The notes: generated by a model from the sequence alone, not told the origin. DNA of 64,000 nucleotides from Burkholderiales bacterium (GCA_023383795.1 JAHDYJ010000008.1:3582-67581); one strand, 5' to 3'; counted from the stretch's first letter, positions 31,198 to 52,955 are shown. Numbers and translations are program-made.

Positions 31198-32469
31198 ATG
31201 ACGCCGTCGGATGACGTCATGGACATAGTGGTGCGCGGCGCGTGTCTGGCGGAACGTCCCGGCCGGTGGGACATCGGTGTTCGCGCCGGCCGGATCGCCG
31301 ACATCGCTCACCGCATCGGCGCCCGCGCGGCAACCGAACTCGATGCCGCAGGACGCTTGGCCGCGCCGACCTACGTGAACGGCCACGTGCACCTCGACAA
31401 GTGCAACCTGGGCGACGTCATGCGTCCGAACCGGACCAACAGCTTCCAGGAGTGCCTCGAGATCACGTGGGAGCACAAGCGCGGCTACACGGTCGAGGAC
31501 CTGCTCGAGCGCGCCGGCCGCGCGATCGAGGAGGGCATCCTGAACGGGACGACCGTCTTCCGGGTCTTCGCCGACGTCGACACGATCGGCGGGCTGCGCC
31601 CGCTCGAGGGCATGCTCGCGCTGCGCGCGAAGTGGCGGGACGTCGTTCACATCCAGGTGGTCGACTTTCCGCAGGAGGCCATCATCCGCGACCGCGGCAC
31701 CTTCGAGCTGATGGACGAGGGCATGCGCATGGGCGCGGACGTCGTCGGCGGGCTGCCGTGGCACGAGCACGTCGACGAGGACGCGCGGCGCCACATCGAT
31801 CTGTGCTTCGACCTGGCGAAGAAGTACGACAAGGACGTGCACATGCTGGTCGACGACACCGACAATCCGAACAGCCGGTCGCTCGAGTATCTGGCCGTCA
31901 AGACGCTGCGCGAGGACTTCCAGGGGCGCGTGTCGGCGAGCCACTGCGGCGCGCTCGCCGCCTACGACGAGGTGCATGCGCAGAAGGTGATGGCGCTGGT
32001 GAAGGAAGCCGGCATCTCGATCACGTCGAATCCGCACATCAGCCTGGTCGCACAGGGCCGCCACGACCGCGAGCCGATCCGCCGCGGCATCACGCGCGTC
32101 AAGCAGCTGTGGCGCATGGGTGTCAACGTCTTCTCGGGCCAGGACGACGTGAATGATCCGTACTACCCGTTCGGCCGCAACGACCAGCAGGAAGTCGCGT
32201 CGATCATGTGCCACAGCTGCCACATGACCTACCCGGACGAGATCCGCGCGGTATTCGAGTTCGTCACCGGAAACGCCGCGCGCGCGCTGCGGCTCGAGGA
32301 TTACGGGCTGGAGGTCGGGTGCCGCGCCGACTTCAACGTGCTGGCCGCGCCGACGATCCAGCACGTGCTGCGGCTGCAGCAGCCGCCGCGCTGGGTCGTC
32401 CGGGACGGCCGCGTGCTCGCGACGAACGAGCTGAAGCGCACGTTCGACGACGCCGGTCGCGCGCGATGA
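31198..32469 (+). CDS. Metal-dependent amidohydrolase, cytosine deaminase / AtzC-like subgroup
   Basis: Track ORF 31123..32469; the ATG at 31198 follows GGGAGGAG. N-terminal beta-sandwich then VNGHVHLDK (HxH metal site). Length is about 420 aa. Start uncertain (GTG at 31189 possible). Confidence 0.8.
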   Translation: MTPSDDVMDIVVRGACLAERPGRWDIGVRAGRIADIAHRIGARAATELDAAGRLAAPTYVNGHVHLDKCNLGDVMRPNRTNSFQECLEITWEHKRGYTVEDLLERAGRAIEEGILNGTTVFRVFADVDTIGGLRPLEGMLALRAKWRDVVHIQVVDFPQEAIIRDRGTFELMDEGMRMGADVVGGLPWHEHVDEDARRHIDLCFDLAKKYDKDVHMLVDDTDNPNSRSLEYLAVKTLREDFQGRVSASHCGALAAYDEVHAQKVMALVKEAGISITSNPHISLVAQGRHDREPIRRGITRVKQLWRMGVNVFSGQDDVNDPYYPFGRNDQQEVASIMCHSCHMTYPDEIRAVFEFVTGNAARALRLEDYGLEVGCRADFNVLAAPTIQHVLRLQQPPRWVVRDGRVLATNELKRTFDDAGRAR

Positions 32470-32497
32470 CCGGGCCTGCGGTGCGGGGGACCCCGCG

Positions 32498-33364
32498 GTG
32501 AAGCCAGCGCCGTTCTCCTACCACGCGCCGAGCACGCTGGACGCGATGCTCGCGCTGCTCGCCGAGGGCGGCGAGGACGGCAAGGTGATCGCCGGCGGGC
32601 AGAGCCTCGTGCCGATGATGAACTTCCGCCTCGCCAGGCCCGCGCGCCTGTTCGATCTCAACGGCGTGGCCGAGCTCGACTTCCTGCGCGCCGAAGGCGG
32701 CTGGCTGCGCATTGGCGCGCTCGCGCGGCACGCCGCCTTCCACCGGCCGCCGTGCGGCGGACCGACCGGCGCGCTGCTCGCCGAGGTCGTGCGCCACATC
32801 GCGCACTACCCGATCCGCCAGCGCGGCACGTTCGCCGGCAGCATCGCGCACGCCGATCCGGCATCCGAATGGTGCCTGGTGGCGGCGACGCTGGGCGCCG
32901 AGATCGTCGCCCGCAGCCGCGCCGGCGAGCGGCGGATCGGGGCCGGGGACTTCTTCCTCGCCAGCCTATCGACCGCGCTGCGGCCCGACGAGCTGATCGT
33001 CGAGGTGCGCCTGCCGATCCTGGACGCAGGCTGGCGCACCGGCTTCTGCGAGTTCTCCCGCCGCGTCGGCGACTTCGGCATCGCAATGACCGCCGTCGCG
33101 CTGCGCGTCGAGTCCGGCGTCGTGCGCGAGGCGCGCATCGGCGTCGGCGGCGTCGAGGATCATCCCGCACGCCAGCCGGCCGCCGAGCAGGCGCTCGTCG
33201 GCCAGCCCGTTGCGGCCCGAGCGTTCGCGGCGGCGGCCGACGCGGTCGCCGGCGCGGTGAGGCCCATGGAGGACCTGCACGCCGACGCCGCGTACCGGCG
33301 CCACCTCGCGCGCACCACCACGCGGCGCGCGCTGGAGCAGGCCTGCGCCGGGTCCGGAAGCTGA
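32498..33364 (+). CDS. FAD-binding medium subunit of a Mo hydroxylase (CoxM/CutM-like)
   Basis: GTG start. MKPAPFSYHAPSTLDAMLALL...VIAGGQSLVPMMNFR (FAD_binding_5) plus the CO_deh_flav_C part. Paralogous to 46085..46957. Confidence 0.9.
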   Translation: MKPAPFSYHAPSTLDAMLALLAEGGEDGKVIAGGQSLVPMMNFRLARPARLFDLNGVAELDFLRAEGGWLRIGALARHAAFHRPPCGGPTGALLAEVVRHIAHYPIRQRGTFAGSIAHADPASEWCLVAATLGAEIVARSRAGERRIGAGDFFLASLSTALRPDELIVEVRLPILDAGWRTGFCEFSRRVGDFGIAMTAVALRVESGVVREARIGVGGVEDHPARQPAAEQALVGQPVAARAFAAAADAVAGAVRPMEDLHADAAYRRHLARTTTRRALEQACAGSGS

Positions 33365-33387
33365 GTCGCGCGAACCGGCTGCAGCGG

Positions 33388-33880
<493 letters not shown>

Positions 33881-33888
<8 letters not shown>

Positions 33889-36061
33889 CGGGCCGACGCG
33901 CTACATCGGCATGCCGCACAAGCGGCTCGAGGACCGCACGCTCCTCACCGGCGGCGGGCGCTTCGCGGCCGATCTCTCCGCCCCGGGCCAGCTGCACATG
34001 CGGGTGGTGCGCTCGCCGGTCGCGTTCGGGCGCCTGCGGTCGGTGGACGTGCGCGAGGCACGCCGGCTTCCGGGCGTCGTGGCGGTGTGGACGTTCGCCG
34101 ACGTCGAGCGCATCCCGCCGATCCAGATCCGGCTGACGAAGATCGGCGGCCTCGAGCCGTACCAGCAGACCGTGCTCGCGCGCGACTACGTGCGCTACGT
34201 CGGCGACCCGGTGGCCGCGGTGTTCGCCGAGGACCCCTACGTCGCCGAGGACGCCGCCGAGCTCGTCTTCCCCGAGATCGAGGAGCTGCCGGCGTGCATC
34301 TCGGCCACCGAGCCGCCGCGCGAGTTCATGCCCGAGACGCTGCCGGGCGTGTCGAGCGAAGCGGCGTGCGTCACCAAGGCCTACGGCGATCTGGACGCCG
34401 CGTTCGCCGCCGCGCACGAAGTGGTGGAGCTCGAGGTCGCGGTCGGCCGCCACACCGGCGTGCCGCTCGAGACGCGCGGTGCGCTCGCGGAGTTCGACCC
34501 GGCGAAGGGCACGCTGACCATGCGCGGCGCGGCCAAGGTGCCGCACTACAACCGCGGCCAGGTGGCGCGCATGCTCGACATGCCCGATGAGATGGTGCAC
34601 CTGATCCAGGGGCATGTCGGCGGCGGCTTCGGCGTGCGCGGCGAGCTCTATCCCGAGGACGTCCTGGTATGCCACGCGGCGCTCCGGCTGAAGCGCCCGG
34701 TGAAATGGGTCGAGGACCGCCAGGAGCACCTGATGGCGGCCAACCACTCGCGCGACCAGTCGTACCGGCTGCGCGCGGCGGTCGACGCGCGCGGCTTCAT
34801 TCTGGGCCTCCAGGCCGAAGTGTTCTCCGACCAGGGCGGCTACGTCCGCACGCACGGCGTCACGGTGCCCGACCTCTCCGCCGCGATGCTGCCCGGTCCC
34901 TATCTGGTGCCGGCCTACCGGGCGGACGTGCACGTGCGCCTCACCAACAAGACGCCCGCAGGAACCTATCGCGCGCCAGGGCGCTACGAGAGCACGTTCG
35001 CGCGCGAGCGGCTGCTCGATGCGATCGCGCACGCCCTCGGCCGCGATCCGGTGGAGGTGCGGCGGGTCAACCTGATCCCGCGCGATCGCATGCCGTTCGA
35101 CCGCGGCGTCGACACGCTCGGCACTCGCGTCGTGTACGACTCCGGCGACTACGCGCTGCTGCTCGACAAGCTGCTCGCGTACCTGGACTACGACCGCCTG
35201 AAGCAGGCGCTCGCCGCGCGGCGCGCCGCCGGCGAGCACGTCGGGTTCGGCCTCGGCTACTTCGTCGAGAAGAGCGGGCTCGGTCCCGCCGACAAGGCGG
35301 TGATCTCGATCGACGCCGAGGGCATGGTCGAGGTCGTTACCGGCGCCGCCTCGATCGGCCAGGGCATCGAGACCGCGATGGCGCAGATCTGTGCCGAGGT
35401 TCTCGAGGTCCCGATCGAGCGCATCCGCGTCGTGCACGGGCGCACCGACCGCATCGACTACGGCATGGGCGCGTTCGCCTCGCGCGTCACGGTGATGACC
35501 GGCTGCGCGGTCAAGGCCGCCGCCGAGGCGCTGCTGGAGAAGCTCGCCGGGGCGCAGGTCGGCACGCCGGCGAGCGCCGAGGGCTGGTTCCGCGCCGACC
35601 ACATGACCTACCCCTACGGCATCCACGCCGCGGTCGTGCGGGTCGATCCGGGCACATGTGCTGTGCACGTCGAGCGCTTCGTCGTCGCCTACGACATCGG
35701 CCGCGCGGTCAACCCGATGCTGGTGGAGGGCCAGATCGTGGGCGGCGCCGTGCAAGGCATCGGCGGCGCGCTCTTCGAGGAGTTCGTGTACGACGCGAAC
35801 GGCCAGCCGCTGGTGACCACCTTCGGCGACTACCTGATGCCCACGCTCGCCGAAGTGCCGCCGGTCGAGGCGCTCGTGACCGAGGACGCCCCTGCCACGC
35901 AGAACCCGCTCGGCGTCAAGGGCGCGGGCGAAGCGGGCATCAACGGCGCCGGCGCGGCGATCGCCGCGGCCGTCGACGATGCGCTCGGCCGCCCCGGCGC
36001 GGTGACCCGACTGCCGGTCACGCCGATCCGCCTGCACCGGCTGCTCGGCGAGCGCGATTGA
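33881..36061 (+). CDS. Molybdopterin-binding large subunit, xanthine-dehydrogenase family (CoxL form-II-like)
   Basis: 726 aa; GTG start after AAGGAG. HKRLEDRTLLTGGGRFAADL N-terminus, GGGFG, TPAGTYRAPGRYE and GVKGAGEAG motifs. It lacks the form-I CODH AYRCSFR signature. Confidence 0.9.
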
Positions 36062-36086
36062 GCGCGCGCCGCCCCGGCGCGGCAGC

Positions 36087-37394
36087 TCAGAGCAGTACGC
36101 CCGGCAGCCAGAGCGCGAGCGCGGGGAACGCGACCAGCAGGGCAATCAGCAGCAGGTCGACCACGAGGAACGGTGCGATCCCGCCGTAGAGCGTCTGGAT
36201 CGGGATGTCCGGCAGCTGCGTCTTGATGACGAAGATGTTCAGTCCGACCGGCGGCGTGATCAGGCCGATCTCGGCCACGATCACGACGAACACGCCGAAC
36301 CATACCCCGTCGACGCCGAGCGCCTGCAGGATCGGCAGGAACACCGGCACCGTGATCAGCATCATGCTCACCGAGTCGAGGAACAGACCGAACACGATAT
36401 AGACCAGGACCAGGCAGAAGATGACCAGGTTCGCCGACAGGCCGGCGGCCTCGATCCAGCCGCCGAGCGAGGCCGGGATGCGCGAGAACACCATGAAGTA
36501 GCTGAACATGAACCCCCCGAGGATCACGACGAACAGCACCGTCGTGGTCCGGACGGTCTCGCGGAACGCCTCGACCAGGCCGCGCCAGCCGATCTGCCGC
36601 GTCGCGGTCCCGATCACGATCGCGGTGAATGCGCCCACGGCCGCCGCCTCGGTGGGGCTGAACCAGCCGAGATAGATGCCGCCGACCGCGAGAAAGAAGA
36701 GCAGCACGAGCTTCCAGACGCCGCTTAGCGCCCGCAGGCGCGCGGCGAGCGGAACCGCGCGTGCGACCGGCAGGCGCCCGGGCATCATGCGGCCAAGGAC
36801 CATGATCGCGGCGATGTGCAGGATCGTGAGCGCGACGCCGGGCAGGATTCCGGCCGCAAACAGCGCCGGCACGCTCTCCTCGGCGATGATCGCGTAGATC
36901 ACCAGGATCACCGACGGCGGGATCAGGATCCCGAGCGTGCCGGCCGAGGCGACGACGCCGGTCGCGATGCGCGCGTCGTAGCCGAAGCGCAGCATCTCGG
37001 GCACGGCGATCTTCGACATCGTCGCCGCGGTCGCGAGCGACGAGCCGCAGATCGCGCCGAAGCCCGCGCAGGCCGCGACGCTCGCCATTGCGAGCGAGCC
37101 GCGCAGCCCGGAGAAGAAACAGTCGGCCGCCTCGAACAGCTCGCGCGCCATGTTCGAGCGCACCGCGACTACGCCCATCAGGATGAACAGCGGCACGACC
37201 GTCAGCGAGTAGTTGCGCGCGATGTCGAGCGGCAGCGTGCCGACCGCGACGAGCGCGGGACGCCAGCCCTCGAGCGCGGCGTAGCCGAAGAACCCGACGA
37301 ACCCGAGCGCGATGCCGACCGGCCACCGCGCCAGGATCAGCGCGACCAGCGCGACGAAGCCCAGCGCGCCGACGACCTCGTTAGGCAGCGTCAC
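36087..37394 (-). CDS. TRAP transporter large permease (DctM family)
   Basis: 435-aa polytopic membrane protein with typical DctM composition and length. Overlaps the small-permease gene. Confidence 0.9.
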   Translation of the reverse strand: MTLPNEVVGALGFVALVALILARWPVGIALGFVGFFGYAALEGWRPALVAVGTLPLDIARNYSLTVVPLFILMGVVAVRSNMARELFEAADCFFSGLRGSLAMASVAACAGFGAICGSSLATAATMSKIAVPEMLRFGYDARIATGVVASAGTLGILIPPSVILVIYAIIAEESVPALFAAGILPGVALTILHIAAIMVLGRMMPGRLPVARAVPLAARLRALSGVWKLVLLFFLAVGGIYLGWFSPTEAAAVGAFTAIVIGTATRQIGWRGLVEAFRETVRTTTVLFVVILGGFMFSYFMVFSRIPASLGGWIEAAGLSANLVIFCLVLVYIVFGLFLDSVSMMLITVPVFLPILQALGVDGVWFGVFVVIVAEIGLITPPVGLNIFVIKTQLPDIPIQTLYGGIAPFLVVDLLLIALLVAFPALALWLPGVLL

Positions 37395-37899
37395 GCCGAT
37401 CCGGCCCTTCCTCCAGCGCTGCGCCGAACCGCCCGGTGATCAGCAGGTACGCCTCGGCGGCGAGCCCGCCCCCGAACCCGATCCAGATCGGCAGCCAGTA
37501 AAGGAACAGCGGGATGCGCAGGTCCATCGTCTCGTCGTCGAAGCGCAGCGCCTCGAGCCCGCTCACCACGATTTGCCAGTCCATCAGCGCGAGGTAGGCG
37601 ATCGTCCCCAGCCCCGCGGCTACGACCAGGAAGCGCAGGACGCGCCGCGGGACGGCCTCGTCGAACAGGCTGATCGCGATGTTCTCTCCGGCGAGGAACA
37701 CCGCCGGCATGGCGAGGAAGACGAGACAGCTGAACGCGAGCAGGACCAGCTCGACGACGCCGAAGATGCGCCACTGCGCGTCGATCGAGCGCAGGCACAC
37801 GTCGGCGACCGTGAGCGCGATCGCAGCGGCGAGGAACAGCGCGGCGACGCTCTCGAAGAGCGCCGCCGCCCGCTCGCGTCCCGAGGCCCGGCCGGCCAT
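37381..37899 (-). CDS. TRAP transporter small permease (DctQ family)
   Basis: 172 aa with four hydrophobic segments, positioned between the DctP and DctM genes. Confidence 0.8.
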   Translation of the reverse strand: MAGRASGRERAAALFESVAALFLAAAIALTVADVCLRSIDAQWRIFGVVELVLLAFSCLVFLAMPAVFLAGENIAISLFDEAVPRRVLRFLVVAAGLGTIAYLALMDWQIVVSGLEALRFDDETMDLRIPLFLYWLPIWIGFGGGLAAEAYLLITGRFGAALEEGPDRRDAA

Positions 37900-37914: not shown

Positions 37915-38976
37915 TCAGTTCGGACAGAAGCTCGCCGAGGTCGCCTTGTGCTTCGCCGCGAGCGCCTGCATCTCCTTGTACGCGGCCGAGGCCGGCAGCT
38001 TCTTGGCGTCGAGATCCTTCACCCAGTCGGCCGACACCTTCGCGCCGAGCGCGCGGAACTTCTGCATCTCGGCGGCGTCGAGCTTGACGATCTTGGTGCC
38101 GCCCTTGACGAGGGCCTGCTTCGCCTTCTGGTCGAAGTTGTCCCAGGAGCCGGCGACCTCCTTCTCGCGGCCCTGCGCGGCCCCGGTCACGATCTTCTGC
38201 AGGTTCGCCGGAAGCTTTTTCCACGACTCCGGATTCATCGCGACACCGAGCGAGGTCGTGTAGCCGTAGATCTCGGTGATATGCTGGGTCACCGGCCCGA
38301 GCTTGAACGCGAACGTGCCGGCCGGATAGTCCATGAAGGTGCCGTCCAGCGTGCCCTTCTGCATATTCTCGGCGAGCTCGTTCGGCGGCATGCCGACCGA
38401 CTTGGCACCGAGCGCGAGCAGGAACGCGCCGATCGTGCGCGACGGCGGCCGGATTGCCGCGCCGCTGAAGTCGGCGATCGACTCGACCGGCTTCTTCGAC
38501 ATCCAGACCTGTCCCGGCACGTGCGCGACGAGCAGCACGACCTTGACGCCGGTGTGCTCCGGATCGAGGTACTTCGCGCGCAGGCCGGCGTCGTTCACCA
38601 CCTTGGTGGCCTGCTCCGCGCTGCAGAACAGGAACGGCAGGTTGGAGAGCTCGGTCAGCGGAAACCGCCCCGGCGTGCCGCCGTGCAGGAACCACGTGAT
38701 GTCGGCCTGGCCGCGCCGCGCGATGTCGTAGTACTTCGGCGTCGGCCCGAGCTGCGCGCCCGGCACCACAGTGAACTTCAGCGCACCGTTCGACTTCTGC
38801 TCCATTTCCTTCGCCCAGTCGACCGTCCACTTCGAGACCGGATGCGAGGCCGGCAGGAAGTGCGCGAGCGTCAGCTCGAACCCGGCGGCCCGCGCGGATG
38901 CCGGCGCGCCGGCGCCGAGGACGGCGCCGGCCGCCGCCGCGGCGGCAAGGCATGCCATGGATCGGAAAGTAGTCAT
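37915..38976 (-). CDS. TRAP transporter substrate-binding protein (DctP family)
   Basis: 353 aa with a signal peptide, then LTLAHFLPASHPVSKW... typical of DctP-type SBPs. Confidence 0.85.
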   Translation of the reverse strand: MTTFRSMACLAAAAAAGAVLGAGAPASARAAGFELTLAHFLPASHPVSKWTVDWAKEMEQKSNGALKFTVVPGAQLGPTPKYYDIARRGQADITWFLHGGTPGRFPLTELSNLPFLFCSAEQATKVVNDAGLRAKYLDPEHTGVKVVLLVAHVPGQVWMSKKPVESIADFSGAAIRPPSRTIGAFLLALGAKSVGMPPNELAENMQKGTLDGTFMDYPAGTFAFKLGPVTQHITEIYGYTTSLGVAMNPESWKKLPANLQKIVTGAAQGREKEVAGSWDNFDQKAKQALVKGGTKIVKLDAAEMQKFRALGAKVSADWVKDLDAKKLPASAAYKEMQALAAKHKATSASFCPN

Positions 38977-39015: not shown

Positions 39016-40125
39016 CTACTTCGTCGTATCGATGATCGCGGCGACCACGCCGCCGCCCGCCGGGCCCTGCTGCAGCGCGGCCACCGAGCAGTACACTGCC
39101 GGATCGCCGATCGCCGCGGCGGCCACCGCACCCACCGCGCCCTTGGTGTGGTGCGTATGGTGGATGTCGGAGTCGTTCAGGGACACCAGGCGTCGCCCGC
39201 GCAGGCGACCCGAGGGATGCGTCTCGCACTTGATGAAGCAGTTCACGACCGCGCCGCCGAGGTCGCTCGCGCGCGGGCGCTCGGGGAGCTGCAGCCCGGC
39301 GCTGCGGATCGCCTCGTAGATGGCGTCCACGTCGAGCGAATCCTTCATCACCGAATGGCCGATCCGGAACGCGCCGCCGATGCCGCGCCGGTTGCCGACC
39401 ACGACGATCTGCGCCTCCTCGTGCTCGACCCCCGACGAGCAGGATGCGACCGACGAGTAGAGCGAGAGATCGCGCGCGATCTGCTCCTCGCGCGGCAGCG
39501 GAAACTCGCCGACGCCGACGCCGATGCCGAGCGCTGCGGTCGCGTTGGAGACCGCCATCGACTCCATGGTGTCCTCCATCACGGTCGTCTTGCCGCGCGA
39601 CTTCGCGGCCGCGATGCGCTCAGAGGTCAGCAGCGGCGTCTTGGTCTGCACGAAGTGCACGTCGGCCGGATCGCTGATGCCGGCGTCGGCCATCGCGCGG
39701 CGCACGCCGGCGGCGACCTTCTCCACCATCGCCAGCCGGCCGATGTCCTCGGGCAGGATGCGCTCGGACACGGCGATGCCCACGGTCAGGCGCAGATCGT
39801 CCCTGGAGCCTTTCGGCGCCGCCGCGTCCGGCACTCGCGCGAACACGTTCAGGTGCGGCGAGATCACGCCGTCGCAGCCGCCGGACAGCGCGATCGGCAC
39901 CTGCAGCGCCTCGGCCCGGCTGCGCGAGCCCTTCCCGACCAGGAAGTCGCGCAGCACGCGGTCGACGAGGATCCGGGAGATGTCGTTGACGCCGCCGTTG
40001 CCCTCGGTCTTCGCGACCACGGCCACGATGTCGTCGGCGCCGAACCCGTGCTCGCGCATCGCCGCCTCGAGGCTGTCGGTGTCCTGCACGTGCTCCATCG
40101 GCACCTTGCATACCAGGAATGGCAT
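39016..40125 (-). CDS. Ring-opening amidohydrolase of the cyanuric acid amidohydrolase (AtzD/TrzD) / barbiturase family
   Basis: 369 aa with RBS GAGGAGG. Alignable by eye along its full length to AtzD as recalled: IVAVVAKTEGNGGVND, LSGGCDGVISPH, LRLTVGIA, HFVQTKTPLLT, KCE, LNDSDIHHT, QQGPAGGG. Confidence 0.85.
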   Translation of the reverse strand: MPFLVCKVPMEHVQDTDSLEAAMREHGFGADDIVAVVAKTEGNGGVNDISRILVDRVLRDFLVGKGSRSRAEALQVPIALSGGCDGVISPHLNVFARVPDAAAPKGSRDDLRLTVGIAVSERILPEDIGRLAMVEKVAAGVRRAMADAGISDPADVHFVQTKTPLLTSERIAAAKSRGKTTVMEDTMESMAVSNATAALGIGVGVGEFPLPREEQIARDLSLYSSVASCSSGVEHEEAQIVVVGNRRGIGGAFRIGHSVMKDSLDVDAIYEAIRSAGLQLPERPRASDLGGAVVNCFIKCETHPSGRLRGRRLVSLNDSDIHHTHHTKGAVGAVAAAAIGDPAVYCSVAALQQGPAGGGVVAAIIDTTK

Positions 40126-42205: not shown

Positions 42206-42210
42206 GGCGG

Positions 42211-43221: not shown

Positions 43222-43268
43222 CGTCTGACCTGCGTTCCCCCGATCGTCGCGCCGAGCGCGCGCCGGCT

Positions 43269-45596: not shown

Positions 45597-46078
45597 CCGG
45601 CCCTCCCGGCGCGGCCGCGCGCGCAGTCCAGGACCGCCTGCACGATCGGCTCGTAGCCGGTGCAGCGGCAGATGTTCCCGGAGAGCGCGCGGCGGACGTC
45701 CTCGCGCGTGGGTGTCGGGTTGTCCGCGAGCAGCGCGGTCATGGTGGTGAGGATTCCCGGCGTGCAGAACCCGCATTGCAGCGCGTGATGCTCCTGGAAC
45801 GCCCGCTGCAGGTCGTTCATCTCGCCGGGCGGCGCGAGGCCCTCGACGGTGGTGAGCCGCGCGCCCGCCGCCTGCACCGCGAACATCAGGCACGAGCGCA
45901 CCGGCGCGCCGTCCAGCAGCACGGTGCAGGCGCCGCACACGCCGTGCTCGCAGCCGACGTGGGTCCCGGTGAGGGCGCAGGTCTCGCGCAGGAAATCGAC
46001 GAGCGTCGTGCGCGGCTCGCAGCGGCCCGCGCGCCGCTCGCCATTGATGGTCAGCTCGATCTCGCGCGGCTCGGGCAT
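45593..46078 (-). CDS. [2Fe-2S]-binding small subunit of a Mo hydroxylase
   Basis: 161 aa with CEHGVCGACTV and CGFCTPG...CRCTGY. Confidence 0.9.
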   Translation of the reverse strand: MPEPREIELTINGERRAGRCEPRTTLVDFLRETCALTGTHVGCEHGVCGACTVLLDGAPVRSCLMFAVQAAGARLTTVEGLAPPGEMNDLQRAFQEHHALQCGFCTPGILTTMTALLADNPTPTREDVRRALSGNICRCTGYEPIVQAVLDCARGRAGRAG

Positions 46079-46084
46079 GGCGGT

Positions 46085-46957
46085 TCAGCGCCTCCGTGGC
46101 GTCAAGGCCTGCGCGAGCGCGCGGCGCGCGAGCACCGGCAGGAGCTCGGACCGGTATTCGGCCGATGCGTGATGGTCGGCACGCGGGGTCAAGCCGTCGG
46201 CGGCCGCTCCGGCGGCGGACCGGAGCGCGTCCTCGCCGCCGTCGGTGCCGGCGAGCGCGCGCTCCACGGCCGCCAGGCGCACCGGCCGGTCGACCACGCC
46301 GAACGCCACGACCCGCGCGTCACCGACGCGGCCGGCGCGATCGCGTTCGACGGTCGCCGCGATGCCGCAGATGGCGAAATCGCCGTGCCGACGCGCGATC
46401 TCGATGAAGCCGTGGCGCCGGCCGTCGGGCCACGCCGGGAAGCGGATCTCGACGAGCAGCTCGTCGGCGCCGAGCGCGGTCTCGAACATGCCGCGGAAGA
46501 AGGCGGCCGCCGCGATCGCGCGCCGCCCGCGCACGCTCTGCGCCACGAGCGTTGCGTCGCAGGCGAGGCAGACCGCGGGCAGCTCGGCGGCCGGGTCGGC
46601 GTGCACGAGGCTGCCGCCGACGGTGCCGCGGTTGCGGATCGCCGTGTGCGCGACCCACGGCATCGCCGAGGCGAGCAGCGGATTCGCCCGGGCCACGAGC
46701 TCGCTGCGCTCGACCGCCGCATGGCGGGTCAGGGCGCCGATCGCGAGCTCGCCCGTGTCCAGCTGCCGGATCCCGGCGAGCGAAGCGATGCGGTTCAGGT
46801 CGATGAGCCACGCCGGCGTCGCGAGCCTCAGCGCCATGACCGGCACCAGGCTCTGGCCACCGGCGAGCACCTTCGCGTTCTCGCCGTGCTCGACGAGTAG
46901 CGCCAGCGCCTCCTCGAGCGTCGCCGGAGCGACGTGATCGAACGGCGCGGGCTTCAT
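46085..46957 (-). CDS. FAD-binding medium subunit of a Mo hydroxylase
   Basis: 290 aa. MKPAPFDHVAPATLEEALALL...VLAGGQSLVPVMALR. No Cys-rich insertion. Confidence 0.9.
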   Translation of the reverse strand: MKPAPFDHVAPATLEEALALLVEHGENAKVLAGGQSLVPVMALRLATPAWLIDLNRIASLAGIRQLDTGELAIGALTRHAAVERSELVARANPLLASAMPWVAHTAIRNRGTVGGSLVHADPAAELPAVCLACDATLVAQSVRGRRAIAAAAFFRGMFETALGADELLVEIRFPAWPDGRRHGFIEIARRHGDFAICGIAATVERDRAGRVGDARVVAFGVVDRPVRLAAVERALAGTDGGEDALRSAAGAAADGLTPRADHHASAEYRSELLPVLARRALAQALTPRRR

Positions 46958-46979
46958 CGCGGACGGCGCCCCGGTCGCA

Positions 46980-47738
46980 TCACTTCCACCGCACCAGCGC
47001 CCGCTCGCACGCCTGCACCAGCTGCGAGCAGATGATCGCGACCAGCAGCACCGACAGGATCACGGCGTAGAGCTCGGTGACGAGGAACGTGTTGCCGTAG
47101 GAGATGATCCGCTCGCCGAGGCCGACCAGCGAGATCAGCATCTCGCCCACGACCATGCCCTTCACCGCCTGCACGACGCCGAGCCGCAGCCCGAGCATGA
47201 CCGCCGGCAACGCCGAGGGCAGGTAGATGCGCCGGAAGAGCGTCGCCTCGCCGGCGCCGAACGCGCGCCCCATCTCCACCAGCGAGCGCTCGGTGCCGCG
47301 CACGCCGGTCAGCGTGTTCACCGCGATCACGAAGAACGCGAACAGGAACACGGTGGCCACCACCACCGTGTCGCGGATCCCGAACAGCGCGATCAGCACC
47401 GGGACGAGCGCCGACAGCGGCGCGGACATGAGCGCGTTGATCCAGCCGTCGAGCAGATAGCGCACGACCGCGAAGCGCCCCATCGCGAGACCGACGCCCA
47501 CGCCGAGGACCGCCGCGAGGAGATACCCCTTGACGAGCGCCGCGAGGCTGGACGCTCCGGCCTGGAACAGCGTGCCGTCGCGGATCAGTCCCCACCAGGC
47601 GACGAAGACCTCCGAGACGGGCGGCAGGAACAGCGAAACGTCGAGCCGTCCGAGGATCTCCCAGACCGCGAGCAGGCCGAGGATCGCCGCGAGACCGGTC
47701 GGCCCGAGATCCGAGTCGCGCTTCGCGGCGGGCGTCAC
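46980..47738 (-). CDS. ABC transporter permease (NitT/TauT-type)
   Basis: The GTG at 47738 overlaps the ATPase stop (GTGA) within track ORF 46980..48269. 252 aa, polytopic, BPD-transporter loop (EMGRAFGAGEATLFRRIYLPSALP). Confidence 0.85.
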   Translation of the reverse strand: MTPAAKRDSDLGPTGLAAILGLLAVWEILGRLDVSLFLPPVSEVFVAWWGLIRDGTLFQAGASSLAALVKGYLLAAVLGVGVGLAMGRFAVVRYLLDGWINALMSAPLSALVPVLIALFGIRDTVVVATVFLFAFFVIAVNTLTGVRGTERSLVEMGRAFGAGEATLFRRIYLPSALPAVMLGLRLGVVQAVKGMVVGEMLISLVGLGERIISYGNTFLVTELYAVILSVLLVAIICSQLVQACERALVRWK

Positions 47739-48541
47739 TGCAGCTTCCTCAGGACCTGCCAGAGTCCGTCGACCATGCGCGCGAAGTCCGCGGTCGCGCG
47801 CACGTCGCCGGATTCGCGCGGGCGCGGCAGCGGGACGTCCAGCACCTGGTGCACGCGGCCCGGGCGCGGGCTGAGCACGACGACGCGATCGGAAAGGTAG
47901 ATCGCCTCCTCCATGCTGTGCGTGACCAGCACGACGGTCTTGCGCTCGGCCGACCACAGCCGGAGCAGGTCGTCCTGGAAGACGCGGCGGGTCTGCTCGT
48001 CGATGGAGGCGAATGGCTCGTCCATGAGCAGCACCTGCGGGTTCACGGCGAGCGCGCGCGCGAGCCCGACGCGCTGCTGCATGCCGCCCGAGAGCTGCGA
48101 CGGATAGGCGTATTCGAAGCTGCCGCCGAGCCCCACCTTGGCGATCGCGCGGCGCGCCGTCTCGGCCCGCTCCTTCGCGGGCACGCCGCGCAGCAGGAGC
48201 CCGAACTCGACGTTGTGCTGGACGGTCGCCCACGGCATCAGCGCGAAGTCCTGGAACACGACGCTGCACTCGGGCCCCGGCCCCGTCACGACGCGCTCGC
48301 CGACCGTGATCCGGCCGCTGTCGATCGGGATCAGTCCGGCGATCGACTTCAGCAGCGTCGTCTTGCCGCAGCCGCTCGGTCCGATCAGCGCGAGGAACTC
48401 GCCCGCTCGCACGCCGATGTTGATATCGACGAGCGCGTGCACGGCGCCGAAGGACTTGTGCACGCCTTCGATGCCGATGCCGACCGGCGCGGGCGGCGCG
48501 GCGGCGGCCGATGCTGCCAGCGCGGCCATCACATCCGCCAT
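47735..48541 (-). CDS. ABC transporter ATP-binding protein (NitT/TauT-type)
   Basis: Walker A GPSGCGKTT, signature LSGGMQQR, Walker B LLMDEPF. Start at ATG 48541 or 48529 within track ORF 47735..48802. Confidence 0.9.
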   Translation of the reverse strand: MADVMAALAASAAAAPPAPVGIGIEGVHKSFGAVHALVDINIGVRAGEFLALIGPSGCGKTTLLKSIAGLIPIDSGRITVGERVVTGPGPECSVVFQDFALMPWATVQHNVEFGLLLRGVPAKERAETARRAIAKVGLGGSFEYAYPSQLSGGMQQRVGLARALAVNPQVLLMDEPFASIDEQTRRVFQDDLLRLWSAERKTVVLVTHSMEEAIYLSDRVVVLSPRPGRVHQVLDVPLPRPRESGDVRATADFARMVDGLWQVLRKLQ

Positions 48542-49263
48542 CGCAGCAGCCGGCCTTCGAGCCGGGCGAGCCCGGCGAGCGCGGCGCCGGAGAGCAGCAG
48601 CGTCCACAGCACCGTCGCGAACATGCGGTCGTGCTCGAACATCGAGCGCGAGTCCATGATCAACCGGCCGAGGCCGAACGGCGAGAGCAGCAACTCGGCG
48701 ACGATCAGCCCGAGGAACGCGCGCGACAGGCCGAGGCGCAGCCCCGCGAGGATCATCGGCAGCGCGCTCGGCAGCACGATGCGCGCGAAGAGCTGGCCCC
48801 ACGACGCGCCGAACGAGCGCGCCATCTCCACCAGCCGGGGGCGCATGTCACGCACGCCGCCGTAGGCGTTCATCGTCACGAACGGCGCGCAGAAGACGAA
48901 CACGATGACCGCCGAGGAGAGGATGCTGATGCCGAACGACAGGATCACCAGCGGGATCAGCGCGGCGGTCGGCAGCGCAATCAGGAGATCCAGGTAGATC
49001 CGCGCAACGCGCCCGATCGGCCGCACCACACCCATGACGAGGCCGAACGGCACGCCGAGCAGTACCGCGGCGCCGAAGCCGAGTGCGAGCGACTGCAGGC
49101 TGGTCAGGCTCGCCTGCAGGAGCGCGCCGGACCAGACCAGCTCGATCAGCGCGGTGAACGTCGCCCACGGCGTCGGGAAATTGAAGCTGATCGGCACCCG
49201 CGCCGCCCACTCCCACAGCAGGAGGAAGACGACGAGGGATGCCGTGCGCAGCGCGATGACCAC
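48529..49263 (-). CDS. ABC transporter permease (second membrane subunit)
   Basis: 244 aa; the GTG start abuts the SBP stop. EMARSFGASWGQLFARIVLPSALP loop. Confidence 0.85.
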   Translation of the reverse strand: MVIALRTASLVVFLLLWEWAARVPISFNFPTPWATFTALIELVWSGALLQASLTSLQSLALGFGAAVLLGVPFGLVMGVVRPIGRVARIYLDLLIALPTAALIPLVILSFGISILSSAVIVFVFCAPFVTMNAYGGVRDMRPRLVEMARSFGASWGQLFARIVLPSALPMILAGLRLGLSRAFLGLIVAELLLSPFGLGRLIMDSRSMFEHDRMFATVLWTLLLSGAALAGLARLEGRLLRWRM

Positions 49264-50250
49264 TTACCGCTTGCCGAAATCCTTGAGCGTGGCTTGGAGT
49301 GCTCCGAGGTCGAAGAACTGCTCGGGGTTCCACTTGGCCGCCGGGCCTTCGAGGTTGCCGGCGGCCACCTGGAACGCCAGGTTCTGTCTGGCGCCTGCCC
49401 CCTGCATCCGCTCGAGACCGCCGTTGGCATCGAACACCTTCACCAGCGCCCGGAGCTGGGCCTCGAGCTTGGCGTCCTCGAGGCCTTTCAGCGCATCGCC
49501 GCGCTCGCGCACCCAGAAGGTGGGATCGGCGATGCCCTTGCGATACGACTCGATCATCCGCCGCACCAGCTTCTGGACCACCGCGGGCTGTTTCTTCGCG
49601 AACTCGGTGTTGACCACCAGGATGCTCGAGGACACCGGCTCGCTGGTGAAGTCGACCAGCGTGTGGAACTTGCCCGGCGCGCGCTCGTTGACGACCTGGC
49701 CCGCCGAGACGTCGAACGCGGCCGCGTCCACTGCGCCGCGCAGCAGCGCCTGCGCGCGCGCCGGAGAGCCCTCGGGCATGAACACGAACTCGGGCTTCAC
49801 CCCGGGACGGGAGTCGAAGTAGTACTCCATCAGCGACTGCACCGTCGACTTCGGCGAGTGAGACGCGATGCGCACACCGTTGAGCGCCTTGACGTCGCCG
49901 AGCTCCTTCTTCGCCATCACGATGAACTCGGGCCGCGAGAGCTCCATCAGGCCGCGGATGTTCGCCCCCTTCGCGACCGCGGGATAGAACGGCGCGAACC
50001 CGGTCGCGAACGCGCCCTGCCCGTCCGCGACGGCGAGCACCACGGCCTCGGACGACTTGAGGTCCTTGATCGTGACCTTGATGCCGTCCTCGCGCTCGAG
50101 GAGCCGCAGGCCGACGATCATCGGGATGTTGACCGCGCGCGTCACCGTGGCGAGGAGGGTGACCTCGTCGGCGGCGGCGGCCGGCCCAGCACCGGCGGCG
50201 AGTACGAGCGAAGCGAGGCCGATAACGGATCTCATGCCACGGATGAACAT
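49264..50250 (-). CDS. ABC transporter substrate-binding protein (NMT1/SsuA-like)
   Basis: The ATG at 50250 (RBS GAGGAGGAG) within track ORF 49264..50319 gives 328 aa with a signal peptide (VIGLASLVLAAGAGPAAAADE). Confidence 0.8.
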   Translation of the reverse strand: MFIRGMRSVIGLASLVLAAGAGPAAAADEVTLLATVTRAVNIPMIVGLRLLEREDGIKVTIKDLKSSEAVVLAVADGQGAFATGFAPFYPAVAKGANIRGLMELSRPEFIVMAKKELGDVKALNGVRIASHSPKSTVQSLMEYYFDSRPGVKPEFVFMPEGSPARAQALLRGAVDAAAFDVSAGQVVNERAPGKFHTLVDFTSEPVSSSILVVNTEFAKKQPAVVQKLVRRMIESYRKGIADPTFWVRERGDALKGLEDAKLEAQLRALVKVFDANGGLERMQGAGARQNLAFQVAAGNLEGPAAKWNPEQFFDLGALQATLKDFGKR

Positions 50251-50427
50251 GTCAGCTCCTCCTCGATGTGTTGGTCGCCGGCGGCCGTGAGGCTCGCCGC
50301 GGCAGCGAGGTTGTAGCACGAGTTCGCGATTCCTTCCACGCGGGCGCCGCCGACCGCATTTTCCGCAGCACGGCGCGGATGCGCAGCCAGGCCGGGACCG
50401 GCGGCCGATCCCGGCTCGTCGCGCCCG

Positions 50428-51207
50428 CTACTGAAGCAGGCGCGGGTCGATCCGATTCGTCTGCAGCGTCGCCTGGATCGCCTCGCGCAGCAGCGCCGTG
50501 TCGTCGGCGCCGTAGCCGTCCAGCCGCACGTCGGCAAGCAGCGTCGCCGGCTTGCCGAACACCAGGATCCGATTGCCGATGCCGATCGCCTCCTCGAGCT
50601 GATGCGTGATCAGCACCGCCGTCGCCCCGTTCGCCCGCGCGAGCCCCACGAACTCGTCGCGGAGCTGGCTTGCCGTCACCTCGTCGAGGTGCCCGAACGC
50701 CTCGTCGGCGAGCAGGATGCCGGGCTGCACCGCGAACGCTCGCGCGATCGCGACGCGCTGGCGCATGCCTCCCGAGAGCTCGTGCGGATAGGCCTGCAGG
50801 AAATCGCCCAGGCCGAGCCGCGCGAGCCACTCGCGCGAGCGCTCGACCTGCTGCGCCTCGGGTAAACCGAGCATCTCCAGGCCGAGGCGCACGTTGTCGA
50901 GCGCCGAGCGCCACGGCAGCAGCCGGTCCTGCTGGAACACGGTCGCGATGCGGCCGCGGAATCCGTCGAAGTCGCCGTACGGCGTGCGCCCGCCGATCTC
51001 GATCGATCCGGCGGTCGGCGCCTCGAGGCCGATCAGGATGTCGAAGAACGTGGACTTGCCGCAGCCGGTCTGGCCCACGATCGCGACCACCTCGCCGGGC
51101 TCGATGCGGAAATCGAGCTGCTGGATCGCGGTCACCGCCTCGCCGGTGGTGGTCTGGCGGTACACCTTGCGCAGGCCGGCGACCTCGATGGGGGCGGGCG
51201 CGCTCAC
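50428..51207 (-). CDS. ABC transporter ATP-binding protein (second system)
   Basis: Walker A GQTGCGKST, signature LSGGMRQR, Walker B LLADEAF. The GTG start abuts the permease stop. Confidence 0.9.
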   Translation of the reverse strand: MSAPAPIEVAGLRKVYRQTTTGEAVTAIQQLDFRIEPGEVVAIVGQTGCGKSTFFDILIGLEAPTAGSIEIGGRTPYGDFDGFRGRIATVFQQDRLLPWRSALDNVRLGLEMLGLPEAQQVERSREWLARLGLGDFLQAYPHELSGGMRQRVAIARAFAVQPGILLADEAFGHLDEVTASQLRDEFVGLARANGATAVLITHQLEEAIGIGNRILVFGKPATLLADVRLDGYGADDTALLREAIQATLQTNRIDPRLLQ

Positions 51208-51978
51208 TCAGGTCCTCCAGCGGAGCAACCGGTGCTCCAGCCAGTTGACCGCGGCCTCGAGCGCGAAGAGCAGCACCACCAGCACGAGCGTCCAGGCAAA
51301 TACGTTCGCCACCGAGAAGAGCTCCTGCGCCACCGCGAGCTGGTGGCCGATGCCGGTCACCGCGCCGACCAGCTCGGCGATCGTGACCACCCGGATCGCG
51401 AGCGACAGATTGATCTTCCAGCTGGTGAGGATCGCTGGCAGAGTGGCCGGCAGCATCAGCTTGACGAAGAACTGCACGCGCGTCGGACGGAAGCTCCGGA
51501 CCATCTCGCGCAGCTCGCGCGACACACCCTTCATCGCGTCCAGAATGTCGATCAGGAAGACCGGAGCGCAGACCACCACCAGGACGAAGCCGATGCGGAA
51601 CTCGACCCAGCGAAACCAGAGGATCGCGAACAGGATCCAGGAGACGACCGGCACCGCCATCAGCAGGCGCACGATCGGCTTCGCGTACCGGTCCGCCGTC
51701 TGCGACAGGTACATGACGACCGCACCCGCGACGCCGAGGGCGAACGACGCGGCGAGCGCGCCCAGCACCCGCGCGAGCGTGACCGCGACGTCGAGCGGCG
51801 TGATCTTCGTGAGCGCCTCGCCGATGCGCACCAGGCTCGGCACCGCGAAGGCCGGAATGCCGAGCGCGGGCGAGAGACGCGCGAGCGTCTCCCACAGCGC
51901 AGCGAGCACCGCGAGCGCGACGAACGCCTCGCGCGGCAGCCGGGCGGGCGGGGTGCCGCCGAGATCGGGCGAGATCAC
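51208..51978 (-). CDS. ABC transporter permease (second system)
   Basis: 256 aa, polytopic, with the EMVRSFRPTRVQFFVKLMLPATLP loop. Confidence 0.85.
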   Translation of the reverse strand: MISPDLGGTPPARLPREAFVALAVLAALWETLARLSPALGIPAFAVPSLVRIGEALTKITPLDVAVTLARVLGALAASFALGVAGAVVMYLSQTADRYAKPIVRLLMAVPVVSWILFAILWFRWVEFRIGFVLVVVCAPVFLIDILDAMKGVSRELREMVRSFRPTRVQFFVKLMLPATLPAILTSWKINLSLAIRVVTIAELVGAVTGIGHQLAVAQELFSVANVFAWTLVLVVLLFALEAAVNWLEHRLLRWRT

Positions 51979-51995
51979 GCGCGCCTAGGGCGTAT

Positions 51996-52955
51996 CTACG
52001 GCGTATAGATGATCATCTCGGCGGGCAGCTTGTCGAGAAACTTCGCCGCGACCGCGCGCTCGAACATCTCCCAGATGGTCTTGCGCTCCGGGCCCCAGGC
52101 CGGCTGCACGTCGAGCTCGAGGCGCTTGTTCGTGAGCGCCTCCTTGACCACACCGGGCGGCAGCTTGATGGTCTTCACGACGATCGCGTCCACCTCGTCC
52201 GGATCGGAGCGCGTGAGCGCGGCGACGTCCTGCATCGCCGCGATCAGGCGGCGCGGCAGATCACCCTTCTTCGCGAAGTCCTCGCGGATCGACAGCACGA
52301 GTTCCCACCCTGCATTGCCGGCGATCTCCTGCCACGCGGCCGCCCCGTTGAAGATGATGCGCAGATCCTTGTCCTGCCGCAGCATCATGGTCACGATCGG
52401 CTCGATCACCATCGCCGCGTCCACGCGGCCGGCGGCGAGCTGACTGCGCGCGAGCGGGAAATTCGCGTTGACCACCGTCACGTCCTTGCCCATCGTGACG
52501 CCCTTCTCGCGCGCGTAGATCGAGACCACCTGGTACTGGCCCGATCCCATGTCGGCGGCGAGCTGCTTGCCCTTCAGGTCGGCGAGCGTCTTGATCGCCG
52601 GATCCTTGGTCAAGATCGAGAGATCGGACAGGCGGAACGCGGTTGCAGCGATCTGCACCGGCGCGCCCTCGGCGCGCATCTTCTGCATCACGGTCGGCCC
52701 GCCGATCAGGGCGTCGACTTCGCCGACTGCGAGCCCGGCGTAGTACGCCGAGATCGAGGGATACGGGCGGACCTCGAGCTCGAACCCGTGCTTGGCGTCG
52801 AAGCGCTTCTCCTTCATCACGTTCACCACCAGCGGCGCGAGCACCGGGAGCGTGAGGCTTGCGGCCCTGATCTTCGGTCGCTCCTGGGCAAGGGCGCCGG
52901 CGGCGAGCGCCGAGAAGGCAAGTGCGCAGACGCAACGCGTGACGACGGTCGGCAT
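51996..52955 (-). CDS. ABC transporter substrate-binding protein (NMT1/SsuA-like, second system)
   Basis: The ATG at 52955 (RBS AAAGGAGAGG) within track ORF 51996..53042 gives 319 aa with a signal peptide. Confidence 0.8.
   Translation of the reverse strand: MPTVVTRCVCALAFSALAAGALAQERPKIRAASLTLPVLAPLVVNVMKEKRFDAKHGFELEVRPYPSISAYYAGLAVGEVDALIGGPTVMQKMRAEGAPVQIAATAFRLSDLSILTKDPAIKTLADLKGKQLAADMGSGQYQVVSIYAREKGVTMGKDVTVVNANFPLARSQLAAGRVDAAMVIEPIVTMMLRQDKDLRIIFNGAAAWQEIAGNAGWELVLSIREDFAKKGDLPRRLIAAMQDVAALTRSDPDEVDAIVVKTIKLPPGVVKEALTNKRLELDVQPAWGPERKTIWEMFERAVAAKFLDKLPAEMIIYTP

Follow-up and report, generated by a model that had tools for sequence, protein, structure and literature searches.

A 64,000-nucleotide stretch of DNA from a Burkholderiales bacterium (GCA_023383795.1 JAHDYJ010000008.1:3582-67581; hereafter the window, with positions counted from its first letter) carries a tightly packed cluster of 22 genes that includes a ring-opening hydrolase, two molybdenum (Mo) hydroxylases, a CodA-like deaminase and three importers. 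We read the cluster as a catabolic system for pyrimidine-type N-heterocycles that converge on a barbiturate-type ring, and we judge the chances of this being right as about evenly balanced. An oxidative pyrimidine type of route is the best reading because the ring opener is placed with barbiturase and because hydroxylases, CodA-like deaminases and importers are recurrently linked to its homologues.

In the oxidative pyrimidine pathway, described biochemically in the early 1950s, uracil or thymine is converted to barbiturate, barbiturate to ureidomalonate, and ureidomalonate to urea and malonate. Biochemical descriptions present uracil/thymine dehydrogenase as a member of the xanthine oxidase family with several subunits and Mo, FAD and Fe-S cofactors. 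To our knowledge, barbiturase is the only enzyme of the pathway with an assigned gene. We found no gene assignment for uracil/thymine dehydrogenase or ureidomalonase in the searchable literature, from which subscription journals may differ, so the cluster is useful as a source of candidates. These are the two Kdh-like three-subunit hydroxylases, an alpha/beta hydrolase and one amidohydrolase_2 protein encoded here, and the amidase, M20 and S15 hydrolases found in relatives.

The ring opener

The gene at 39016-40125 (minus strand) encodes a protein of the AtzD/TrzD fold that matches Pfam Amido_AtzD_TrzD (PF09663) with 414.9 bits (cutoff 25) over residues 5-365 and TIGR02714 with 433 bits (cutoff 153). 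Among PDB entries, Rhodococcus erythropolis barbiturase (5HWE) scores 431 bits, cyanuric acid hydrolases at most 273 and a Frankia ring-opening amidohydrolase 183. The ring opener is 58% identical to the Rhodococcus barbiturase and 45% identical to the Moorella cyanuric acid hydrolase.

We describe active-site residues in Moorella numbering, with roles taken from the Moorella structures (PMC6557486). In cyanuric acid hydrolases R52, R193 and R328 bind the substrate, one arginine per carbonyl of the symmetric ring, while R325 belongs to the second shell (PMC6557486). The ring opener has all three Ser-Lys dyads (K40/S83, K161/S231 and K299/S347), R52 and E235. Its first shell (R52/N193/K328/E235/V348) and its dyads are identical to those of 5HWE and differ from the hydrolase pattern R52/R193/R328/G348: two of the three substrate-binding arginines are replaced, R193 by Asn and R328 by Lys. 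The ring opener is thus predicted to be a barbiturase-type enzyme, not a cyanuric acid hydrolase. We also considered the replacement of R325 by His as the loss of a substrate-binding arginine and rejected this, since R325 is second shell and R328 is the third arginine (PMC6557486). An argument for a ring with a different 2-substituent loses its main support because the first shell is identical to that of barbiturase.

A sequence-only reading of this DNA had assigned the protein to the AtzD/barbiturase family and had left a triazine route open. The family placement is confirmed and can be narrowed to the barbiturase clade with barbiturase first-shell residues; the AtzD/triazine alternative is weakened by the two missing arginines.

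The family is small, with 184 clusters at E<=1e-30 among 1.84 billion representatives at 50% identity. In a neighbour-joining tree of full-length representatives, the ring opener shares one clade with Rhodococcus barbiturase and lies in a separate sister subclade, which is defined here and is uncharacterised. This window-type subclade has 66 members among the loci retrieved, 67-86% identical to the ring opener and 54-60% identical to Rhodococcus barbiturase. The Rhodococcus-type group (19 sequences and two cultured actinomycetes) is 63-67% identical to that enzyme. Only 12 well-conserved columns separate the two. The dyad lysines, S83, S231, R52 and E235 occur in all 66 subclade sequences, and S347 in all 36 that cover its column. 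Window-type genes are common in Burkholderiales and in metagenome-assembled genomes (MAGs) of uncultured Acidimicrobiia, Candidatus Poriferisocius among them; the ring-opener gene itself has its nearest relatives in MAGs of uncultured Burkholderiales and Betaproteobacteria. Two actinomycete replicons in PLSDB carry Rhodococcus-type genes, for which our annotation gave only a loose context.

JGI product names of ring-opener homologues are a mixture of 'barbiturase' and 'cyanuric acid amidohydrolase'. Automated pipelines would probably name all window-type proteins cyanuric acid hydrolases by mistake, and such labelling by the NCBI equivalog model would inflate the apparent triazine-degradation potential of metagenomes.

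The molybdenum hydroxylases

Hydroxylase 1 is encoded on the plus strand by genes for an FAD subunit (32498-33364; FAD_binding_5 and CO_deh_flav_C), a 2Fe-2S subunit (33388-33888; Fer2 and Fer2_2) and the 726-residue molybdopterin subunit Mo1 (33881-36061; Ald_Xan_dh_C and MoCoBD_1/2). Hydroxylase 2 lies on the minus strand, with an FAD subunit (46085-46957) and a 2Fe-2S subunit (45593-46078) that match the same families and the 775-residue molybdopterin subunit Mo2 (43269-45596), recognised by Pfam. In both cases the three-subunit composition agrees with the description of uracil/thymine dehydrogenase (EC 1.17.99.4).

Mo1 and Mo2 are 41% identical. The best PDB match of Mo1 is Kdh (7DQX; 589 bits, in two separate stretches), followed by quinoline 2-oxidoreductase (Qor); Mo2 also matches Kdh best (485 bits), followed by CoxL-like proteins and Qor. 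Aldehyde oxidoreductases and true xanthine dehydrogenases score much lower than Kdh and Qor for both. The translations of Mo1 and Mo2 each contain a GAGE motif near the C-terminus, whose Glu we take to be the catalytic base of the hydroxylase family, and a TYR(A/G)PGRYE motif where carbon monoxide dehydrogenase has its cysteine loop. Identities as xanthine dehydrogenase, carbon monoxide dehydrogenase, aldehyde oxidoreductase/PaoC or 4-hydroxybenzoyl-CoA reductase were rejected for both enzymes, which score far below the respective NCBIfam cutoffs. By similarity, both are predicted to be Kdh/Qor-like N-heterocycle hydroxylases, and a Mo hydroxylase of this cluster is a reasonable candidate for uracil/thymine dehydrogenase.

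The window has a third enzyme of the xanthine dehydrogenase family at 4393-11322 (minus strand), which is 4-hydroxybenzoyl-CoA-reductase-like. Its Mo subunit (5715-8126) scores 642 bits against TIGR03194, below the cutoff of 995; the Fe-S subunit is at 8122-8679, and the FAD subunit (8680-9810) is about 90 residues longer than those of hydroxylases 1 and 2. It is accompanied by a PaaK-like CoA ligase (4393-5745), a MarR regulator (9957-10454) and an XdhC chaperone (10429-11322), the only XdhC in the window. The operon probably belongs to an aromatic-acid CoA pathway.

Candidate deaminase, other hydrolases, dehydrogenase and importers

A candidate aminopyrimidine or cytosine deaminase of the CodA/AtzC family is encoded at 31189-32469 (plus strand; Amidohydro_1/3). 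Its best NCBIfam match is the cytosine deaminase model NF005748 (327 bits, below the cutoff of 438), and its top PDB match is Escherichia coli CodA (227 bits), with AtzC at 159 bits. The HxH, FPQ (Q156), SH (H246) and DD (D313/314) motifs of CodA are aligned; the H214-x-x-E217 segment shows a two-residue alignment shift (DVHMLVDD versus DVHCDEIDD).

Two minus-strand genes encode Amidohydro_2 (PF04909) proteins. A2a (42211-43272) is ACMSD-like, with human ACMSD as its best PDB match (129 bits) and uracil-5-carboxylate decarboxylase at 66 bits; no NCBIfam model matches. It aligns with the HxH motif and the equivalents of His174, His224 and Asp291 of ACMSD, and with the carboxylate-binding arginines R47 and R235. 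A2a is thus probably a metal-dependent decarboxylase. A2b (40273-41307), a candidate second hydrolase, has DIFNH in place of HxH; its best PDB match is the uncharacterised 3ij6 (142 bits), and no orthologue was found in the related loci that we mapped. The sequence-only reading had drawn attention to iso-orotate decarboxylase as a member of this family; nothing ties A2a or A2b to iso-orotate specifically.

The alpha/beta hydrolase at 41342-42214 (minus strand; Abhydrolase_1/6) may act on a ring-opened product and has weak similarity to PcaD and RutD, under the cutoffs. On the plus strand, the gene at 53090-53935 encodes a short-chain dehydrogenase/reductase (SDR; adh_short).

All three importers are on the minus strand. 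ABC importer 1 (50428-52955; NMT1/NMT1_2 and ABC_tran) consists of a binding protein (51996-52955), a permease (51208-51978) and an ATPase (50428-51207). Its permease was recognised by similarity to those of importer 2 (27-31% identity) and to a BPD_transp_1 permease of the related locus L088 (68%). ABC importer 2 (46980-50250; NMT1/Phosphonate-bd, BPD_transp_1 and ABC_tran) comprises a binding protein (49264-50250), two permeases (48529-49263 and 46980-47738) and an ATPase (47735-48541). Both binding proteins give generic NMT1/THI5-like family matches and have no useful PDB relatives. The TRAP importer consists of the large membrane subunit DctM (36087-37394; PF06808), the small membrane subunit DctQ (37381-37899; PF04290) and the solute-binding protein DctP (37915-38976; PF03480). 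No DctP ligand can be deduced because its best PDB matches, 7nsw and 7nrr, are distant (157 bits).

A tblastn search of the whole window with queries from related loci (E<=1e-4) found no amidase-signature, isochorismatase-family, M20, S15 or cupin gene. The absence of a ureidomalonase/amidase-signature or biuret hydrolase gene from the window, noted in the sequence-only reading, is borne out by this search.

Gene neighbourhoods in relatives

We compared 80 GTDB loci and further metagenome contigs, labelled L001 onward. Linkage to hydroxylases was counted at loci with at least 12 kb of flanking sequence, as a xanthine-dehydrogenase-family large subunit within 10 kb. In raw counts, such a subunit occurs near the ring-opener homologue at 25 of 53 window-type loci (47%) and 5 of 12 Rhodococcus-type loci (42%); many of the subunits are 0.1-2.7 kb away. 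A tree of large subunits places members of the hydroxylase-1 orthogroup 0.2-2.7 kb from the ring opener in three phyla, represented by Betaproteobacteria, Acidimicrobiia and a Verrucomicrobiales MAG. The loci are the window, L088, L092, Acidimicrobiia such as L014, L024, L028, L029, L032 and L040, and the Verrucomicrobiales MAG L043. The hydroxylase-2 orthogroup adjoins the ring opener in L005 and L090.

Nearly the whole system, in the two-hydroxylase layout, is found together with an amidase-signature gene in L092/L094, whose ring-opener homologue is 77% identical. These loci contain ABC importer 2, the amidase-signature gene, the SDR, hydroxylase 1, the ring opener, two small cupins, another ABC importer, hydroxylase 2, an A2a orthologue (82%) and an alpha/beta hydrolase orthologue (75%), the last following the hydroxylase-2 and A2a genes in L092. 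A2a orthologues (66-82%) adjoin hydroxylase 2 or the barbiturase homologue in L092, L090 and L007. SDR orthologues (74-81%) lie inside the barbiturase-containing cluster of all six betaproteobacterial relatives (L003, L087, L088, L090, L091 and L092) and head a same-strand gene run in five of them; in the window the SDR gene diverges from ABC importer 1.

A CodA-like orthologue (83%) in L087 is followed by two small cupins and then the ring opener; 18 kb of this locus contain no Mo enzyme. CodA-like genes also occur near Rhodococcus-type barbiturases. The four-gene unit of ABC importer 2 (59-86%) is found beside barbiturase homologues in L004-L007, L087, L091 and L092. In L088 and L096, ABC importer 1 orthologues (50-68%) come after the hydroxylase-1 genes. 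The TRAP importer is not conserved beside barbiturase homologues elsewhere. The gene content had been taken earlier to fit an oxidative pyrimidine route, and hydroxylases, CodA-like deaminases and NMT1-type ABC importers do recur beside barbiturase homologues in many lineages.

The hydrolase that adjoins the ring opener varies among loci (amidase, M20, S15 peptidase-family, isochorismatase-family, amidohydrolase_2 or alpha/beta hydrolase), which is the pattern expected if a second hydrolytic step is filled by non-orthologous enzymes.

The two subclades differ in their neighbours. Rhodococcus-type loci are enriched in amidases, hydantoinase A/B, PucR regulators, NCS1 permeases and AtzH-like proteins, whereas window-type loci are enriched in Mo hydroxylases, amidohydrolase_2 proteins, TauD-family dioxygenases and alpha/beta hydrolases. 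PucR and hydantoinase A/B are among the commonest neighbours for the Rhodococcus type only, and amidases occur near both types. An amidohydrolase_2 gene is near the ring opener at 17 of 53 window-type loci versus none of 12 Rhodococcus-type loci. In the tblastn maps, SDR orthologues of at least 60% identity, Rieske/VanA-type oxygenases, S15 peptidases and cupins appear only near window-type genes.

Several individual loci deserve mention. At 19 of 53 window-type loci, in Acidimicrobiia MAGs (L013, L015, L017, L018, L021 and others), the gene lies beside a Rieske/VanA-type oxygenase, which hints at N-methylated or otherwise different feedstocks; a subset of these loci adds a Mo hydroxylase, an amidohydrolase_2 gene, a 339-residue unknown protein and an ornithine-cyclodeaminase-family gene. 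L001 is a contig that bears the label of a Klebsiella pneumoniae MAG, probably through mis-binning; its ring opener, an 85% homologue, is without a nearby Mo hydroxylase. In its upstream run (L001:6640-9917), an open reading frame (ORF) at 6640-7755, 2.2 kb upstream of the ring opener, encodes a TauD/TfdA-family Fe/2-oxoglutarate dioxygenase that may be an alternative hydroxylating enzyme; the third ORF of the run (8781-9917) is 44% identical to it. L063, L074 and L080 have two ORFs of hydantoinase/oxoprolinase A/B size directly before a Rhodococcus-type barbiturase gene, and among the neighbours of all loci taken together 4-5 proteins match Pfam Hydantoinase_A/B. In L174 (Embleya sp.) a carbamate-kinase-like AA_kinase gene precedes the barbiturase gene, and PucR, CodA-like, CN_hydrolase, CoxG and Mo hydroxylase genes are within about 12 kb of it. 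The hydroxylase-1 operon of L088/L096 has FAD and Mo subunit genes with no 2Fe-2S gene between them; genes for ABC importer 1, a thiamine-diphosphate enzyme and an M20 amidohydrolase come next.

We also scanned metagenome contigs with Mo1, as a reverse test of the linkage. The closest homologues (76-81%; L094, L096 and L097) accompany the ring opener or hydroxylase 2. Homologues at 55-67% identity mostly belong to another operon, itself conserved and ordered cupin, cupin, FAD subunit, second Mo-like subunit, Fe-S subunit and Mo1-like subunit. SDR orthologues (80-84%) are also found beside Mo1-like genes that lack a barbiturase gene (L104, L108 and L129), so the association of the SDR with the hydroxylase-1 type is as close as that with the ring opener. 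The sequence-only reading had suggested that one of the Mo hydroxylases could be uracil/thymine dehydrogenase; genomic linkage is strong from the barbiturase side and weak from the side of hydroxylase 1. The cupin-cupin operon with two xanthine-dehydrogenase-type large subunits was observed in L099-L101, L105 and L123, and also in L014, L024, L028 and L029. Its second Mo-like large subunit is about 35% identical and its Mo1-like subunit 63-66%. The metagenome contigs show no barbiturase homologue within up to 10 kb of the operon.

Proposed pathway and alternatives

What the sequences show directly is the gene content, its operon-like packing, the barbiturase-type active site and the repeated linkage of these families. 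In the scheme that we infer, including all substrates, the order of steps, the pairing of hydroxylases with rings and the role of the SDR, the two NitT/TauT-family ABC importers with NMT1-type binding proteins would take up the substrate or substrates, and the TRAP importer would probably take up a carboxylated relative. The CodA-like aminohydrolase would strip an exocyclic amino group, as in the conversion of cytosine to uracil. A three-subunit Mo/FAD/2Fe-2S hydroxylase would then put oxygen beside a ring nitrogen, as in the conversion of uracil to barbiturate (uracil/thymine dehydrogenase activity). Hydroxylase 1 appears to be a slightly better candidate than hydroxylase 2 for supplying the ring opener, which would hydrolyse the trioxo ring to a ureidomalonate-type product. 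This would be split to urea (or carbamate) and malonate, not by an amidase-signature protein but perhaps by the alpha/beta hydrolase, by A2b or by an enzyme encoded elsewhere. Hydroxylase 2, the ACMSD-like decarboxylase and the alpha/beta hydrolase may form a conserved second module that probably funnels in a substituted, and probably carboxylated, ring.

Several observations weigh against an oxidative pyrimidine route of the textbook kind. The ring opener's 58% identity to Rhodococcus barbiturase is little above the 50% that separates this barbiturase from the Moorella cyanuric acid hydrolase. Metagenome contigs and MAGs were the sole sources of window-type sequences here, and these sequences have fixed T324/H325 near the active site versus H324/R325 in the Rhodococcus type, and a C-terminal loop SVAALQQ versus SVSAAHQ in the sequenced Rhodococcus enzyme. 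By phylogeny, the ring opener is best classed not as an orthologue of the characterised barbiturase but as a member of the uncharacterised sister subclade. The linkage rates must be read beside the three xanthine-dehydrogenase-family operons of the window alone. Moreover, no barbiturase gene lies within up to 10 kb of most Mo1 homologues at 55-67% identity; hydroxylase 1 does not partner barbiturase alone. The two hydroxylases are conserved together (the window, L092/L094 and L097), yet uracil needs one hydroxylation. No ureidomalonase candidate of the kinds present in relatives adjoins the ring opener, and no gene for ureidomalonase, urease or malonate utilisation can be recognised in the window. 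Finally, the conserved SDR, the decarboxylase and the TRAP importer have no place in the canonical pathway.

A rival reading keeps the architecture but changes the chemistry: the feedstock would be something other than uracil or thymine, and the sister-subclade hydrolase would open not barbiturate but a hydroxylated ring related to it. We regard this as less likely than the main reading, but as a substantial alternative. The ring could be a 5-substituted barbiturate, a 2-substituted 4,6-dihydroxypyrimidine or a polyhydroxypyridine, reached from an N-heterocyclic carboxylate or an aminopyrimidine by two successive Mo hydroxylations, an SDR step and decarboxylation. Such a route would make use of both co-conserved hydroxylases and of the SDR that heads the gene run in five relatives. 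It would accord with a TRAP importer, which implies a carboxylate substrate, with the two carboxylate-binding arginines kept in the ACMSD-like decarboxylase, with a distinct uncharacterised subclade that has fixed second-shell changes near site A, and with neighbourhoods that differ between the subclades. However, every first-shell residue is identical to that of an enzyme proven on barbiturate, CodA-like genes and NMT1-type importers also occur at Rhodococcus-type loci, and no alternative substrate is positively indicated, also not by a thiamine pyrophosphate (TPP) or other riboswitch. A bolder form, which we give only a slim chance, is an undescribed aerobic pathway for substituted pyrimidines in which the SDR and a Mo enzyme would oxidise a side chain, the ACMSD-like enzyme release CO2, the CodA-like enzyme deaminate, the other Mo enzyme hydroxylate and the new barbiturase subclade open the ring. 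Possible substrates are 5-hydroxymethyl-, 5-formyl- and 5-carboxy-uracil or -cytosine, or the 2-methyl-4-amino-5-hydroxymethylpyrimidine of thiamine. If true, it would link genes for the first time to the uracil/thymine-dehydrogenase-type and ureidomalonase-type steps. The thiamine pyrimidine was set aside as a main substrate, given that the NMT1/THI5-like matches are generic and that no TPP or other riboswitch was found in the cluster region.

Another explanation is that the cluster comprises separate modules (a deaminase/hydroxylase-1 operon, a hydroxylase-2/decarboxylase/hydrolase operon and a ring-opener/TRAP unit) that are adjacent by chance or through loose clustering. Gaps of 147 and 177 bp allow distinct transcription units, ring-opener neighbourhoods differ greatly among lineages, Mo1-like operons are commonly without a ring opener, and the organism has many xanthine-dehydrogenase-family enzymes. 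We nevertheless find it improbable: independent contigs carry the same set (SDR, hydroxylase 1, ring opener, hydroxylase 2, A2a, alpha/beta hydrolase and ABC importer 2) with the genes rearranged, in full in L092/L094 and in part in L087, L088/L096, L090, L091 and L097, and conservation despite such reshuffling argues for functional coupling. In an s-triazine route, which is very improbable, cyanuric acid would be the substrate of the ring opener, and ammelide-type intermediates would be deaminated or dealkylated by the CodA/AtzC-like enzyme. The ring opener does pass the cyanuric acid amidohydrolase equivalog NF052395 (396.7 bits; cutoff 360), and AtzC is a detectable relative of the aminohydrolase. 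Against this, N193 and K328 replace two arginines and Val replaces G348 exactly as in barbiturase, an enzyme reported to be inactive on cyanuric acid (PMC4051656). Mo hydroxylases have no role in triazine hydrolysis, and no biuret hydrolase, AtzE/F/G/H or allophanate hydrolase is encoded in the window. Oxidative breakdown by way of a barbiturate-type ring is retained as the preferred reading.

Extent and setting of the cluster

Genes were called with guidance from GC content at third codon positions and annotated by Pfam and NCBIfam scans of the window. The resulting map equals the independent JGI gene calls on the source metagenome contig, which is 85.7 kb long and belongs to sample 3300009873. 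Every gene of the sequence-only reading is present in the order given there, and its account of gene content is thereby upheld. Its extent needs one correction. The listed genes stand, but the conserved, divergent SDR gene at 53090-53935 was missed; the cluster should be extended to it because it is a conserved partner in relatives.

The packing is operon-like. The largest intergenic gap in the cluster as originally listed is 177 bp, and minus-strand genes overlap or are 0-39 bp apart, except at 50250/50428 (177 bp) and 40125/40273 (147 bp). A promoter and terminator scan of 35.9-54 kb gave counts at or below shuffle expectation and is uninformative in DNA of 72% GC. GC content is uniform across the whole window. 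No tRNA, mobile-element or Rfam feature and no regulator gene was found in the cluster region. A mobile island was rejected, as the composition is unbroken and the cluster has neither a tRNA nor a mobility gene; 'island' applies only in the sense of a gene cluster.

The catabolic region is flanked by two giant TPS-domain (two-partner-secretion, haemagglutinin-like) proteins, a CHAT-domain protein, a CHASE2-adenylate/guanylate cyclase and a cyclase-FHA protein. The flanking genes lie at 13888-19466 and 57557-63145 on the plus strand and at 20358-24690 and 55718-56620 on the minus strand, and are unrelated to the catabolic cluster.

Comparison with known systems

The cluster can be compared with the biochemical steps of the oxidative pyrimidine pathway, to which its CodA-like deaminase and Mo/FAD/Fe-S hydroxylase correspond. 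It differs in having no nearby amidase-type ureidomalonase in the window and in its extra SDR, second hydroxylase, ACMSD-like decarboxylase, alpha/beta hydrolase and TRAP importer. The conserved SDR, second hydroxylase and decarboxylase are thereby exposed as partners that the textbook pathway does not explain. The ring opener shares the PF09663 fold, the dyads and the first shell with R. erythropolis barbiturase (EC 3.5.2.1), but it belongs to the sister subclade, with R325H, H324T and a changed C-terminal loop.

With the AtzD/TrzD enzymes (Moorella 6BUM and Pseudomonas 4BVQ) the ring opener shares the Toblerone fold, the Ser-Lys dyads, the QGPxGGG metal-binding loop motif and a score above the NCBI equivalog cutoff. 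It departs from them in lacking R193 and R328, in having Val for Gly348, and in a context of Mo hydroxylases with no biuret or allophanate genes.

The best structural relatives of Mo1 and Mo2 are 6-hydroxypseudooxynicotine dehydrogenase (Kdh) and quinoline 2-oxidoreductase (1T3Q), which have the same FAD/2Fe-2S/Mo split. Those enzymes serve the nicotine and quinoline pathways, and Mo1 and Mo2 are well diverged from them, so that no orthology is implied. In the group of ACMSD and iso-orotate decarboxylase, A2a retains the metal ligands, the catalytic His and both arginines, at a score of only 129 bits, and A2b differs in having DIFNH for HxH and an uncharacterised protein as its best structural match.

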